64,000 nucleotides of DNA from Dehalococcoidia bacterium (GCA_965247605.1 CBDFHM010000011.1:327930-391929); one strand, 5' to 3'. Counted from the stretch's first letter, positions 1,638 to 57,087 are shown. Translations and numbers: made by a program. Notes: generated from the sequence alone by a model not told the origin.

Positions 1638-2399
1638 ATGAACGTCCACGTTTATACCCAGCCTGGTTGATTCAGTTGCCGGACGGTGGAAGAGTTCCTC
1701 TCGTCCCACGGTGTTCAGTATGAACACCACAATTTGCTAACCGACACCCAAGCTGTTGAGGACCTGCGGAGCCGGGGAATCAAGTCCCTGCCGGTCACCA
1801 TCGTAGACGACACCGAGGTCATCATTGGCTACTACCCCAAGAAGTTGATCCCGGCGTTGAAGCTGGACGTGACCGTGGACTTGTCCGGCAAGACATCGTG
1901 GTTGGCGGAAAAATACGAAGTCGTCATGAGTGCGGCCATCCGCTCCACTCTCCAGTTCTCCCAAGAGCAATTGGATGCCGTCGTGTCGTGGCGGCCCTGG
2001 AGCCTGCGGGACACAATGGTTCACATCTTGTCGTTCCCTGAAGTCGCGTATTTGAGCCACAAGGTCGGCAGCATGAGCTGGGACGACATGGCCGCATCCG
2101 ACGAACGCCTCAAAGCTATCACAACCGGCCCGGCCATCGCCGAGTATGGAGACCAAGTCCGTCAGGACATCATCGAGTTTCTGGGCAGCGGCAACTCCGA
2201 CGCTTTCGACCGCGAGGTCCCCGCCCACTACGGCGGCGAAGTCACGGTGCTCGAACTATTGAACATCATCCTCAGCCACAGCACCCATCACCTGAAGCAG
2301 GTCTACTACTACATGCAGACCGACCTGGGAATGACGCTGGACCGGCCTGCGACCGATGCAGATTTGGAGGGCATCAACACGCCCGACGCGTTGATCTAG
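1638..2399 (+). CDS. Glutaredoxin-like / DinB-fold fusion protein, candidate selenoprotein (in-frame UGA 1668-1670 in a U-x-x-C motif)
   Basis: The track ORF (GTG 1686) lacks the Grx beta1 strand and redox motif. The same frame upstream reads ATG(1638)...MNVHVYTQPG-TGA-FSCRTVEEFLSSHGVQYEHHNL. GGGAG lies 7 nt upstream of the ATG. Hairpins lie at 1681-1706 and 1711-1727, downstream of the UGA. The C-terminal half (...LELLNIILSHSTHHLKQVYYYM) resembles the DinB/YfiT fold. Confidence 0.6.
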
Positions 2400-22898: not shown

Positions 22899-23153
22899 TT
22901 AGGCTGGTTGTCCTATACGCTCGTTGATAGCCTTCATCATGTCCTGCAGGTCAGGGAAGAGGTGCGCTTCGGGTGTATGGCGGTGTTCGGCCACAAGCTT
23001 GCCGTCAATAATCACGTCAAACTTTCCATGAGGACCGGGAGTGAGCTTGAAGTTGTCTATATGCTCGCCGGCCCGGGTCAATGCTTCTCCTGCCATCCAG
23101 GCAGCCCGCGGGGCGTGCCCTCAATCCTGGCAGTAGAGTATCTCCAAAGTCAT
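22899..23153 (-). CDS. SelW/Rdx-family selenoprotein (C-x-x-U; in-frame UGA at 23123-23121)
   Basis: The track ORF starts at Met 23096. The same frame upstream reads ATG(23153) MTLEILYCQD-TGA-GHAPRAAWMAGEALTRAGEHIDNFKLTPGPHGKFDVIIDGKLVAEHRH..FPDLQDMMKAINERI. This is the Rdx-fold pattern (YCxxU...AAW...PG.GG.F.V..dG.l). GC-rich hairpins lie directly 3' of the UGA, for example CUGCC-UGGAU-GGCAG at 23104-23090. Confidence 0.8.
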
Positions 23154-23260
23154 TTTTTTCGCGCTGGCCAAGGTGCACCTCCGGCGATAGAAATTTGTAA
23201 CAGCATGATATGGTGGGGTCTAAATTAAGTCAAACACCCAGGCCATTTGGGTCACCTTAC

Positions 23261-24699: not shown

Positions 24700-26728
24700 T
24701 TAGTCCTCCAGGCTTTCCGCCAGAATTTCCAGTACATCCCGGGACTGCTTCTCCCCTTCCATCCCCTTGGACTGAATGCCCTCGGTGAGCATTTGCAAGC
24801 AGAAGGGGCAGGAAACCCCCACCGTGTCCGCCTGGGTCTCCAGGAAATGGCCGGTGCGAACGTGATTGATCCGCTCGCCTTGGCTTTCCTCGATCCACAT
24901 ATGGCCACCGCCGGCGCCACAGCAGAATCCGCGCTCCCGGCACCTGTTTCCCATCTCGACCAGCTCCAGCCCCGGAATTGCTCTGGCGATGTCTCGGGGT
25001 TGGTCGTAGATGCCGTTGTGGCGGCCCAAGAAGCAGGAATCATGATAAGCCATCGTGGTATTGACCATCTTGATAGGCTTCACCCGCCCTTGTTTGATCA
25101 GCTCATCGATGAACTGGCTGTAGTGGAGCACCTCGTAATTCCCGCCAAATTGGGGGTACTCGTTGCGCATTGTGTTGAAGCAGTGGGGGCAAATGGTGAC
25201 GATCTTTTTAACGTTGTACCGGTCCAGTGTTTCTATGTTCTGCTGGGCCAGGACTTGGTAAAGATACTCGTTGCCCATTCGCCGGGCCGGGTCGCCTGTG
25301 CACGTCTCCTCATCTCCCAGGATGGCGAAGTCGACTCCGGCTGACTTCAAGACCTTGACCATAGACCTGGCCACTCCCTGGCTACGCTGCTCCAACGCCC
25401 CGGTGCAACCCACCCAAAAGAGGATTTCCGCGTCGGGCTTTTCCGCCAGCGTGGGGACCTCCAACCCTTCGGCCCAATCGGTGCGGGAATACTGGGTGCC
25501 TCGCCAGGGATGGCCCCGTTGTTCTAGGCTCAGCAAGGCGTTCATACCCGTTTCCGGTATCTTGGACTCCTCCAACACTAGAAAACGGCGCATGTCCATG
25601 ATGGTGGGGACGTGCTCCACCACCACGGGACACTCCTCCATGCAGGCCCCACATGACACGCAGTCCCAGATGGCCTGCTCGGCAATTGCATTACCCAGGA
25701 TGGGCGCCGGCTCCACGTGCTCCGGGTTTCGCGCCCCCTGGTGACCGATGGCCACCATGTGATCTTTCAGGTTCTCCACAATGTGCATCGGCGACAGGAC
25801 TTTCCCGGTAAGGTTGGCCGGGCAGACATCGGAGCAGCGGCCGCACACGGCGCAGGCGTAGCCGTCCAAAAGCTGTTTCCACGTGAAGTCCTGCACCCGG
25901 GCCGGCGCCGAATTTTTCGGTGTTTTCCAGGTCTATGGGGGCCAAAGCGCCGCGGGGCTCCAGTGATCGAAAGAAGGCGTTCATGGGCGAGGCAACCATG
26001 TGCATGTGCTTGGAGAAGGGGATGTAGATGGCGAATCCCAGGATTATCCCCAAGTGCGTCCACCAGAATATGCCCTGCAGTGTGTTGGCCGCGCCCGTGC
26101 CTATACCCAGGTCCGTAAACCAGTCGCCCAGGGCGCCGCCTATGAGAACTTCGGATTCGGGCCCATGGCCCCCCTGGGCCACATAGAAGGAGTGGGTGAG
26201 TATAGTTGACAGCATGAGCCCGGCGATCAAGCCAACCACGATCACCGAGTCCAGGTTACGGGTCAGGTCAAAGCTCAGCCGGCGTGGCCTGACCACCCAT
26301 CGCCGCACCAATGCCCAGGCCAGCATCAGCAATAACACAGCCGCCGCAATTTCGAGGTAGCTGCTGTAGACGCGGACTCCGGTGCCGGTCAGAAGCTTCT
26401 CCGGGAAGGCCCGCCAGATGGAGCCGCCGAAGATGAAGATAACGTAGCTGAGGAGAAGGAGAGGAACCCCCAGAATATTATGCGTGGCCCAATCCCGCCC
26501 AGTCCCCGGACCGCACCCTCTGAAGCACCCGGCTCTGGCCCAAGACAATGACCAAGGCCCCATTGAGCCGCACAAGCGGGCGGTCAAACTGGCCACCTCT
26601 TTGCCCTGTCGAATCAGGCGCAGTACCCGGTTGTAGAACACATAGCCGGACACCGCGCTGACCAGAACCAGTGCCAGGTACACGCCCACCCAGATGGGCA
26701 GTGATCCTATGTCTCCCGGAGGAACCAT
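24700..26728 (-). pseudogene. Membrane-anchored Fe-S oxidoreductase (HdrD/DsrK-like: 2x[4Fe-4S] plus 2 CCG domains fused to a multi-TM domain), interrupted by at least 4 frameshifts
   Basis: The C-terminal frame (24700-25896) has CAVCGRCSDVCPA, CVSCGACMEECP and two CCG-type Cys motifs. The membrane part (to 26728) switches frame around 25896-25901 (...ENTEKFGAG | RVQDFTWKQLLD). It also switches frame three times within 26455-26600, where the sensible reading QFDRPLVRLNGALVIVLGQSRVLQRVRSGDWAGLGHA / IIFWGF / LLLLSYVIFIFGG lies in three different frames. Confidence 0.75.
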
Positions 26729-50202: not shown

Positions 50203-51099
50203 ATGGCAGAGCGGATCGGTTTTATCGGACTGGGGATTATGGGCAAGCCGATGGCTCGAAACTTGCTTAAAGCTGGCTATTCATTGACGGTTTTCGACAT
50301 CGTTGGTGAGCCTGTGGAGGAGCTGGTGTCAGAAGGAGCGGCCGGCGCCGGTTCCAACCGGGAGGTGGCCGCCGCCAGCGACAAGATCATCACCATGCTT
50401 CCCGACTCCGCCGACTCTGAGATGGCAATTTTGGGACCCGATGGAGTTCTGGAGGGTGCCCGGCCCGGCGCCATCGTTATCGATATGAGCTCCATCGCGC
50501 CCCTGGTATCCCAGAAAATCGCCGCTGAATGCGCCATAAAGGGCGTGGAGATGTTGGACGCCCCAGTTAGCGGCGGTGAGCCGGGCGCCATAAATGCCGC
50601 CTTAGCCATCATGGTTGGCGGCCAGCAAGATGTTTTCGATGGCTGCTACGACCTATTGAAGACCATGGGCAGCAATGTGGTCTTGACCGGAGACATTGGG
50701 GCCGGAGGCATAACCAAGCTCGCCAACCAGATCATTGTTGCGGCCAACATCGAGGCACTGAGCGAGGCGTTGGTGTTGTCACAAAAGGCTGGGGTTGATC
50801 CGGAAAAGGTGTTCAACGCCATCAGAGGGGGGCTGGCCGGGAGTGCCGTGATGGAAGCCAAGGGTCCGATGATGCTGGACCGTAATTTTCGGGCCGGCTT
50901 CCGCGTGCGCCTCCACCAGAAGGACCTGCGCAACGTATTGCAGACCGGACAGGAGCTGAATGTCCCCCTGCCGGTAACTGCCCTTTTGCAGCAGATGCTG
51001 GGGGCTTTGATCAACGACGGCGAAGCCGATGCCGACCACTCCGCGATCCTTCACTTTTTGGAGAACATGGCCCACGTGGAAGTCAAGCGGGGCGGCTGA
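50203..51099 (+). CDS. NAD(P)-dependent 3-hydroxyacid dehydrogenase (HIBADH / tartronate-semialdehyde reductase family)
   Basis: IGFIGLGIMGKPMARNLLKAGY Rossmann motif and the family-typical C-terminal domain. Confidence 0.85.
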   Translation: MAERIGFIGLGIMGKPMARNLLKAGYSLTVFDIVGEPVEELVSEGAAGAGSNREVAAASDKIITMLPDSADSEMAILGPDGVLEGARPGAIVIDMSSIAPLVSQKIAAECAIKGVEMLDAPVSGGEPGAINAALAIMVGGQQDVFDGCYDLLKTMGSNVVLTGDIGAGGITKLANQIIVAANIEALSEALVLSQKAGVDPEKVFNAIRGGLAGSAVMEAKGPMMLDRNFRAGFRVRLHQKDLRNVLQTGQELNVPLPVTALLQQMLGALINDGEADADHSAILHFLENMAHVEVKRGG

Positions 51100-55508: not shown

Positions 55509-55868
55509 ATGAAAGACTTTAGAGAGTTGAAAGTCTGGGAGAAGGGCCATCGGTTGGCCTTGGCTGTTTACAAGGCGACTGCCGCGTTTCCAAAAGATGA
55601 GCTGTACGGGCTGACCGGCCAAATCCGGCGGTCTTGCGTGTCTATCCCAGCCAATATTGCCGAAGGTTGCGGCAGGAATGGAGATGCCGAGCTTGCCCGT
55701 TTTCTCCAGATCGCCATGGGCTCGGCCAGTGAACTGGAGTACCACATCCTACTCGCCCACGATATCGGCTTACTGAGTAACGCAAGTTACGAGCAGCTTT
55801 CACTAGATACGACCGAGGTTAAGCGAATGTTGGCATCCTTCATCCATACACTGAAAGCTGACCGCTGA
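55509..55868 (+). CDS. Four-helix-bundle protein (23S rRNA-intervening-sequence protein family)
   Basis: FRELKVWEKGHRLALAVYKATAAFPKDELYGLTGQIRRSCVSIPANIAEGCGR...FLQIAMGSASELEYHILLA is the family signature. Confidence 0.85.
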   Translation: MKDFRELKVWEKGHRLALAVYKATAAFPKDELYGLTGQIRRSCVSIPANIAEGCGRNGDAELARFLQIAMGSASELEYHILLAHDIGLLSNASYEQLSLDTTEVKRMLASFIHTLKADR

Positions 55869-55892: not shown

Positions 55893-57087
55893 CTTGATTG
55901 CTTGCCTGCTGGTAACCCACCTTCCCGTAAAAGCGGAGATAGGGCGCTATCCCCAGCTCCGGGGAAGGCCGGTTGTCATAACTGAGAGCTATGGCTCAAA
56001 GGAGCTGGTGCTGGACAGCTCCCCCGAGGCCCGGGGCGTTGCCGCCGGCATGTCCTTTCAGGAAGCCGTGTCCCGGTGCAAGGACGCGGTCCTGCTCCAG
56101 GTGGATGCTCCCTACTACGAGTCGCGCTTCGACGCGGTGGTCCGCTCCCTGGAGGGGAGAAGCCCCCTGGTGGAGAAGGGCGAGTTGGGCTGCGCTTACG
56201 TGGGGCTGGGCGGTCTGGAAGCAATGTACGGGGGCGAGGCCAGGCTGATAGCGACCTTGCTCCAGGCGGCGCCCCCTGAGTTCAATCCCCGTATCGGGGT
56301 GGCCGCTGGAAAGTTTCCGGCCTACGTCGCCGCGGTAACCAGCAGCAGCGGCCGGGCCACCAGGGTGCCCCGGGACGCCGCAGGGTTCCTCAAGGAGTAC
56401 TCCATAGACCTGCTGCCCCTGTCCTGGGAAAACAAGTCCCGCCTGCACCACTTCGGGCTGCACACCCTGGGCCAGTTGGCCGCCCTGCCGGTGGGGTCCG
56501 TCCAGGCCCAGCTAAAGTCTGAGGGCAGGAGGGCTTGGGAGCTGGCCGGCGGCATCGACTCCAGTCCCTTGGCGCCCTACCAGCGCGAGGAGGTAGTTGA
56601 TGAGTTCCTCACCTTTCCTTCACCCACCGTAGACCGCCACGCCATCCTGATGGGCCTGGAGATCTTGCTGGGCAGGGCCTTTGCCCGCCCGGAAATCAGG
56701 GGCAGGTATGTCCGCACCGCCACCGTCGAGAGCCAGGTTGGGCCGAGAAAACCTCCCTGGTCCCGGCGCTTCCCTTTCAAGGATGCGGTGGGCAGCAAGG
56801 AGAAGGCCCTGTGGGTCCTGAAAAGCCGGCTGGATACAATGCTGGATACAAGGGCCCTACCCGGACCTCTGGAGGATATGAAGCTGACTTTGGCCGGGTT
56901 CACCGGCGAAACCGGCATCCAGGCTAGCCTTTTCTCCGACGTCCGCCGGCGGGAGCAGCTCCGGGAGATGATGCGCCAGTTGGAGGCGCTCCTGGGTTGC
57001 AAGCCGCCCATCTACCAGGTAAAGGATGTGGAACCATGGTCCAGAGTTCCCGAAAGACGTCAGGCCCTGGTCCAATTCGAGCCCTGA
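55882..57087 (+). CDS. imuB: ImuB-like inactive Y-family DNA polymerase
   Basis: Y-family fold (..SPLVEKGELGCAYVGLGGLE.., ..LPLSWENKSRLHHFGLHTLGQLAALP.. HhH). The N-terminal acidic catalytic motif is replaced (LLVTHLPVKAE). It lies upstream of dnaE2. Confidence 0.75.
   Translation: MAKSLIACLLVTHLPVKAEIGRYPQLRGRPVVITESYGSKELVLDSSPEARGVAAGMSFQEAVSRCKDAVLLQVDAPYYESRFDAVVRSLEGRSPLVEKGELGCAYVGLGGLEAMYGGEARLIATLLQAAPPEFNPRIGVAAGKFPAYVAAVTSSSGRATRVPRDAAGFLKEYSIDLLPLSWENKSRLHHFGLHTLGQLAALPVGSVQAQLKSEGRRAWELAGGIDSSPLAPYQREEVVDEFLTFPSPTVDRHAILMGLEILLGRAFARPEIRGRYVRTATVESQVGPRKPPWSRRFPFKDAVGSKEKALWVLKSRLDTMLDTRALPGPLEDMKLTLAGFTGETGIQASLFSDVRRREQLREMMRQLEALLGCKPPIYQVKDVEPWSRVPERRQALVQFEP

Follow-up and report, generated by a model that had tools for sequence, protein, structure and literature searches.

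A SelW-like gene with a predicted selenocysteine codon and an intragenic SECIS-type hairpin in a Dehalococcoidia bacterium

The window analyzed here is the whole stretch of 64,000 nucleotides (64 kb) taken from a Dehalococcoidia bacterium, and the locus under study lies on its minus strand. Translation of the window from 23153 down to 22899 gives MTLEILYCQD, a stop symbol, then GHAPRAAWMAGEALTRAGEHIDNFKLTPGPHGKFDVIIDGKLVAEHRHTPEAHLFPDLQDMMKAINERIGQPA and a second stop symbol, and the frame runs as MTLEILYCQD-TGA-GHAPRAAWMAGE...IGQPA-TAA. The mechanical ORF list represents this locus by a truncated 65-aa piece alone, which starts with Met at ATG 23096 and covers 22899..23096. A sequence-only reading of the same DNA had proposed that this ORF extends upstream on the minus strand through a TGA at 23123-23121, and the frame is confirmed by the translation. 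The full coding sequence of the SelW-like/Rdx selenoprotein is placed at 22899..23171 (minus strand) on the basis of translation, the Pfam Rdx and TIGR02174 matches and the pN/pS values, with its start taken from orthologue comparison. It consists of 90 codons followed by the TAA stop at 22901-22899, and reads MASAKKMTLEILYCQDUGHAPRAAWMAGE...IGQPA. The in-frame TGA, the predicted Sec codon, occupies 23121..23123, and the TGC Cys codon of the CxxU redox motif occupies 23130..23132 (both on the minus strand). We hold with high confidence that this is the gene of a small redox protein, genuine but ordinary, in which the in-frame TGA is a predicted selenocysteine.

The orthologue set was made of 80 loci from a one-genome-per-species scan, which together with the window gives 81 sequences. 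All 80 loci are from MAGs of Dehalococcoidia, Chloroflexota or SAR202, and many of these assemblies are complete chromosomes. The conserved neighbours among these loci are an upstream same-strand alpha/beta-hydrolase (70 loci), DUF503 (67), Rex (58), a CCG/4Fe-4S oxidoreductase (56) and the beta and epsilon subunits of ATP synthase (54 each). Since this neighbourhood is kept in most of the 80 loci, the gene is a stable chromosomal one, neither mobile nor decaying.

The start of translation was analyzed by comparison of the orthologues. The sequence-only reading had taken ATG 23151..23153 (minus strand) as the start, which probably does not hold, because this position carries a non-start codon (CTG, CTT, TTA and others) in 42 of the 81 sequences and none of the 39 sequences having a start codon there shows an SD-like motif ahead of it. 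In 77 of the 81 sequences an SD-like motif is found 4-16 nt before an in-frame ATG, GTG or TTG which lies 5-9 codons upstream of that position. In the window this codon is the probable true start TTG at 23169..23171, preceded at 6 nt by the Shine-Dalgarno sequence GGAGG at 23178..23182 (both minus strand); the closest relative (L001) shares the same GGAGG-N6-TTG arrangement and has TTA at the position of ATG 23153. Judged from these alignments, translation probably starts at TTG 23171 and gives a product of 90 aa, in which the former start would be the internal Met7. Further upstream, a sigma-70-like promoter match TTGACT-17-TATCAT is located at 23205..23233 (minus strand), in the interval that separates the hydrolase gene from the SelW-like start; one such site was found against 0.5 expected from shuffles. 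A terminator-like hairpin stands directly after the hydrolase stop at 23252-23236 (minus strand). Both are consensus matches only, and taken together they suggest that the SelW-like gene may be transcribed on its own.

Family assignment was done with the 84-aa product counted from ATG 23153, in which the TGA was entered as Cys, and also with the 65-aa ORF alone. With Pfam Rdx (PF10262) the 84-aa product scores 49.8 bits, where the cut-off is 22.6, and the match (E = 4e-13) extends over profile positions 2-73 of 74. With NCBIfam TIGR02174 CXXU_selWTH it scores 36.7 bits, the cut-off being 34.2. The 65-aa ORF alone reaches 19.1 bits, which is under the Pfam cut-off of 22.6, and the Pfam match therefore passes only with the TGA read through. 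The NF041051 SelTWH_Campy equivalog gave 38.7 bits against its cut-off of 88, so the protein falls outside that equivalog group. The full-length protein is a member of the SelW/Rdx family, in agreement with what the sequence-only reading had claimed.

The nearest solved structures by sequence are six bacterial SelW-related proteins, namely 3DEX (SAV_2001), 2FA8 (Atu0228), 2P0G (V. cholerae), 2OKA, 2OBK and 2OJL, which show 27-35% identity and have in common with the window protein the YCxxC/U motif followed by xxxRAAW, GxF and FP. The stretch YCQD-TGA-GHAPRAAW aligns with YCTQ-C-RWLPRAAW, and YCQD-TGA lines up with YCTQC or YCRQC in 3DEX, 2FA8 and 2P0G, so that the Cys at 23130-23132 matches the first Cys of CxxC and the TGA stands at the second. 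These solved proteins thus have Cys at the Sec position of the window protein. The fold test was done on a full-length homologue (P0003) which is 69% identical to the query. Its AlphaFold model (pLDDT 89.8, pTM 0.79) has a beta-alpha-beta-beta-beta-alpha topology with a strand at 6-13, a helix at 16-36, a sheet and a C-terminal helix, and the redox motif sits where the strand 6-13 ends and the helix 16-36 starts. In a Foldseek comparison of this model with the PDB the top 21 matches are all bacterial SelW-related proteins with TM 0.70-0.85, the six solved proteins having the same fold at an rmsd of ~2.7 Å, and the matches that come after them are thioredoxins and MIEN1 (2LJK).

The SelW-like gene belongs to a well-known family and to a class already known for heavy use of Sec. 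SelW-like CXXU proteins are established as selenoproteins and abound in marine bacteria; in the Sargasso Sea data no other selenoprotein family had as many genes, the count for SelW-like being 48 (PMC1088965). Organisms that use Sec contain few Cys homologues of SelW-like proteins, or none (PMC1794560). The Sargasso Sea and GOS SelW-like CXXU proteins (Zhang, Fomenko and Gladyshev 2005, PMC1088965; Zhang et al. 2006, PMC1794560) resemble the window protein in their size of ~80-100 aa, in the N-terminal CxxU, in a SECIS placed within the coding region just after the UGA and in the G of the small apical loop. Eukaryotic Rdx proteins (SelW, SelT, SelH, SelV, Rdx12, MIEN1) have in common with it PF10262/TIGR02174, CxxU or CxxC and a thioredoxin-like fold, but their SECIS is described as lying in the 3'-UTR and being of a wholly different type, whereas the signal in the window is inside the CDS. 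No paper was found in the literature that deals specifically with the SelW-like family in SAR202/Dehalococcoidia.

Selection on the frame was measured by a Nei-Gojobori-style count over all sequence pairs. The pN/pS value is 0.21 upstream of the TGA, 0.20 from the TGA to Met20 and 0.24 downstream, in the annotated ORF, and the other two frames give 1.5-1.6. Similar values on either side of the UGA mean that one frame is under the same protein-level constraint throughout. This result bears directly on the explanation that the TGA is a real stop, under which the locus would fall into two products, an upstream peptide of 16 codons (MASAKKMTLEILYCQD) and an independent 65-aa protein from ATG 23096. 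ORF finders and public gene callers do give exactly the 65-aa product, and the TGA codon does terminate other genes of the window. Against this, the 65-aa product stays under the Pfam cut-off as given above, would miss the redox motif together with strand beta1 and the first part of helix alpha1, and the stretch between the TGA and Met20 is under the same purifying selection as the rest. An SD-like motif stands ahead of Met20 (23096) in just 6 of the 81 sequences, and one of the orthologues (L027) has ATT there. The equal constraint on both sides of the UGA strongly disfavours a leader peptide with a separate 65-aa protein, for which we see only a very slim chance, and it speaks just as strongly against a sequencing error.

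The records of public databases were also surveyed for this locus. The identical 65-aa product is recorded on two public contigs of ~1 kb each, and a homologue search among about 5.8 billion proteins brought 134 relatives. Among the 120 matches listed of these 134, most are called at 56-76 aa with ~65-82% query cover, a pattern which is expected if gene callers stop at the TGA. The SelW-like gene is routinely truncated at its TGA by gene callers, and is a textbook example of selenoprotein mis-annotation.

The TGA is present at the same codon in 81/81 sequences from independent assemblies, and the Cys of the CxxU motif in 80/81. That the TGA arose from a TGC/TGT Cys codon, as an error of sequencing or assembly or as a lesion in a pseudogene, could be suspected from a probable 1-nt indel in a neighbouring gene near 25897-25903 and from one relative which is visibly decayed. 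In that relative, the SelW-like copy at L080:3001-3240 has Phe in place of the redox Cys and two extra in-frame stops while the TGA is kept; either the copy has decayed or the assembly is of low quality here. The unbroken presence of the TGA in independent assemblies, several of them complete long-read chromosomes, stands against such an error, and so does the observation that no member carrying the histidine set described below has Cys at the TGA codon. We consider an error or lesion to be next to impossible.

A reassigned genetic code, in which TGA means Trp or Gly, was weighed in the same way. The few full-length database homologues have W at the TGA position (two to three: P0003, P0079, P0147), which is what such a code would leave behind in the records, and these entries are best explained as gene calls made under a TGA=Trp code. 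The true stops of the 81 orthologues are TAG in 36, TGA in 23 and TAA in 22, and the window open frames of at least 250 codons (n=41) end with TAG in 21, TGA in 10 and TAA in 10. The sequence-only reading had named three genes of the window with genuine TGA stops, at 55866-55868, 57085-57087 and 51097-51099, and all three were verified as TGA. Because TGA terminates 23/81 orthologues and other genes of the window, including these three, the case is one of local recoding without reassignment of the code, as that reading had it, and the chance of a reassigned code is negligible.

The candidate SECIS hairpin CUGCC-UGGAU-GGCAG was placed at 23090..23104 (minus strand) from its geometry and covariation, with the 5' stem CUGCC at 23104-23100, the loop UGGAU at 23099-23095 and the 3' stem GGCAG at 23094-23090. 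Its stem counts 5 bp and its loop 5 nt, of which the second and third are G, and the distance from the UGA is 16 nt to the stem and 21 nt to the loop. The published bSECIS consensus has an apical loop of 3-9 nt with a G within its first two positions, a stem of 4-16 bp, a distance of 16-37 nt between UGA and loop and an MFE of -7.5 kcal/mol or lower (PMC13188914). The hairpin lies within the published ranges for loop, stem, G and spacing (PMC13188914), and it is alike to the bSECISearch criteria (PMC13188914, Fig. 2) in the 5-nt loop, the 5-bp stem, the G-G at loop positions 2-3 and the 21 nt. It differs from the consensus bSECIS in being very short, with U and U as N1 and N2 of the loop, which are unable to pair. 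The bare hairpin has an energy of -7.3 kcal/mol against the criterion of -7.5, and the local 29-nt fold has -9.5; a local fold at or below -7.5 is found in 68 of 73 distinct orthologous sequences. The 66-nt SECIS region, which is GC-rich, folds no better than its shuffles (z = 0.11), and ~6% of random positions or UGA triplets in the window precede an equally good SECIS-type hairpin, so that geometry alone is moderately informative.

The comparative evidence carries more weight. The loop together with the closing pair corresponds to the Trp-Met codons of the AAWMA motif, and the conserved residues Ala-Ala-Trp-Met-Ala dictate four of the five stem pairs, which therefore carry no independent information. 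Only the fifth pair (alignment columns 30/42) is free to vary, as it links two Ala codons at their synonymous third positions. At this pair UA is found in 30 sequences, GC in 25, CG in 8 and other or unpaired states in 10, the covariation score was reached in 0/500 shuffles, and at least 9 independent Watson-Crick switches were counted on the gene tree, which was built by neighbour joining with the hairpin masked. The covariation of pair 30/42 is the decisive evidence for a SECIS. The hairpin is conserved, it covaries and it stands at the right place after the UGA.

The sequence-only reading had offered two GC-rich hairpins after the UGA. CUGCC-UGGAU-GGCAG, the second of them, is upheld both by its bSECIS geometry and by covariation at a synonymous site; the other, GGCA(C)GCCC-CGC-GGGCUGCC, was given up, having no covariation (499/500 shuffles were at least as good) and a loop only 10 nt from the UGA. 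An alternative register, GCCUG-GAUGG-CAGGC, was rejected as well, since compensatory changes are missing from it and the largest clade disrupts its pairing.

The form of the stem was compared among clades with columns 26-47 of alignment A2. In the largest clade (L028-L078, with CWD...GHAGRAAWMAS) the stem is GGCC-UGGAU-GGCC with a bulged A and three more pairs (CGC/GCG). Five loci (L016, L018, L022, L023 and L079) have a C-C mismatch in the stem, which can be accommodated by a bulged C. The predicted hairpin architecture thus appears to drift among clades around a constant loop UGGAU.

The machinery for Sec was searched in the window and among the relatives. ARAGORN found no tRNA in the 64-kb window, and no Rfam family reached its gathering score there, so there was no match to a curated SECIS or tRNA-Sec model. 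SelA, SelB and SelD were absent among ten size-matched window ORFs searched with NCBIfam. In their matched part these ten ORFs are a pyrophosphatase, a flavin-dependent halogenase-like protein, an aminotransferase, LLM oxidoreductases and an M16-type peptidase-like protein, the last having weak sub-threshold PqqF/pitrilysin matches, and four of the ten are without a match. No tRNA-Sec was found by ARAGORN in the 60 loci scanned of the 80 related ones. One orthologue (L068) comes from SAR202 cluster bacterium bin87, where it lies on contig MPNC01000001.1. In the publication of this MAG, MPNC00000000 is given as bin87, a Chloroflexi member of the SAR202 clade, and the COG table there counts SelA 3, SelB 1 and SelD 1 for bin87; all five SAR202 bins of the bin87 study have SelA, SelB and SelD. 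The ten bacteria richest in selenoproteins according to BSepDB include two Dehalococcoidia MAGs, one with 49 and the other with 46 selenoprotein genes. As the window itself showed no Sec genes, the machinery of the source genome is deduced from these relatives, and from them we infer that SelB-dependent Sec insertion takes place in the source genome.

This is also the point at which read-through without Sec has to be weighed, that is, near-cognate insertion of Trp or Cys at the UGA stimulated by the hairpin. In its favour are the want of visible Sec machinery in the 64-kb window and the indirect route by which Sec is assigned to the UGA. On the opposite side, the UGA stands exactly at the catalytic Cys position of the redox motif, the hairpin conforms to bSECIS geometry, its loop lying 21 nt from the UGA and carrying G at position 2, and the lineage encodes SelA, SelB and SelD along with many selenoproteins. 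We rate such read-through as very unlikely. The explanation as a whole, a Sec-encoding SelW-like gene whose UGA is recoded through a SECIS, we regard as highly probable.

On this explanation the locus would encode one 90-residue SelW-like (Rdx-family) selenoprotein with a thioredoxin-like fold, with Cys14-x-x-Sec17 as its active site, where strand beta1 passes into helix alpha1. Translation would most likely start at TTG 23171 behind GGAGG, and the ribosome would pass the UGA at 23123-23121 without terminating. CUGCC-UGGAU-GGCAG, 16 nt downstream, would act as a bacterial SECIS and recruit SelB.GTP.Sec-tRNA(Sec), whereupon Sec would be inserted and translation would go on to the TAA at 22901-22899. 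Motif and fold alone point to the protein being most likely a selenol/thiol oxidoreductase, in which a selenenylsulfide would be formed and resolved.

The window protein differs from canonical SelW-like proteins by five invariant histidines (in UGH, HGKF, EHxH and AH) and by a 4-residue insertion before FPD. These histidines (13, 42, 57, 59 and 64 in the 84-aa numbering) are invariant in 81/81 sequences, and their codons in the window lie at 23117-23115, 23030-23028, 22985-22983, 22979-22977 and 22964-22962 (minus strand). The solved SelW-related proteins have W, G, R and E at the places of His13, His42, His57 and His59 and are without the His64 insertion. The segments KLTPGPHGKF and EHRH, which the sequence-only reading had taken as a general SelW-like signature, are instead specific to this His-rich subfamily. 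Every member with the histidine set has the TGA and none has Cys there, while four peripheral relatives (P0145, P0150, P0155 and P0156) which carry Cys at the TGA-aligned position, and are hence CxxC proteins, are without the five histidines. The subfamily is compact, as an exhaustive profile search over 1.84 billion representatives yielded no more than 36 clusters. Another relative (P0131, a representative cluster of 87 aa), with EYRHDRGHALRAAW, has Arg at both the Cys and the Sec positions and is possibly a non-redox derivative of the SelW-like family.

The invariance of the five histidines hints at a metal-handling site or a proton relay by the CxxU motif. It can further be speculated that the subfamily is Sec-obligate and that its histidines form, together with Cys-x-x-Sec, a metal/selenium site, which would make the protein a metallochaperone, a detoxifier or a selenium-delivery protein and no plain oxidoreductase; we think this rather unlikely.

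Two other loci of the window were observed in the course of the survey. A second candidate selenoprotein is located at 1638-2399 (plus strand), beginning MNVHVYTQPG-U-FSC..., with a UxxC motif and its TGA at 1668-1670. This ORF joins an N-terminal Glutaredoxin domain, whose match covers profile positions 1-58 of 60 and runs across the TGA, to DinB_2. Its predicted hairpin GGACGG.GGAA-GAG-UUCC... has a loop that begins 21 nt past the UGA, as does the hairpin of the SelW-like gene. The presence of this candidate in the same window adds to the case for Sec in the SelW-like gene. The ORFs at 25691-26728 and 24700-25896 (minus strand) overlap by 206 nt in different frames, and the latter is a CCG + 4Fe-4S HdrD/GlpC-like protein. 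In the related loci that were checked (~44 having both parts) there is one continuous ORF, ...EKFGAG-R-VQDFTWKQ..., and the window has one extra C in the GGCCCGGG run near 25897-25903, which is either a true frameshift or an indel of the assembly. The overlap had raised the question of a third Sec site in the GlpC/HdrD-like gene; the idea was rejected, because the overlap comes from this 1-nt insertion or frameshift and there is no TGA.

The SelW-like locus is a clean teaching case of dual coding, since the hairpin is written into the codons of Ala-Ala-Trp-Met-Ala and one set of bases thus carries protein sequence and RNA signal at once. The loop and closing pair fall on Trp and Met, which have a single codon each, and the one free stem position covaries through synonymous Ala codons. 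Biochemical work could reasonably be directed at the His-rich, Sec-only subfamily. Re-annotation is straightforward, with the start codon linked to the SD motif and the TGA read as Sec. Most of the listed public relatives are fragments of 56-76 aa without the active site, and through such fragment gene calls the selenoproteome of SAR202/Dehalococcoidia is under-counted and the family is made to resemble a domainless hypothetical protein.
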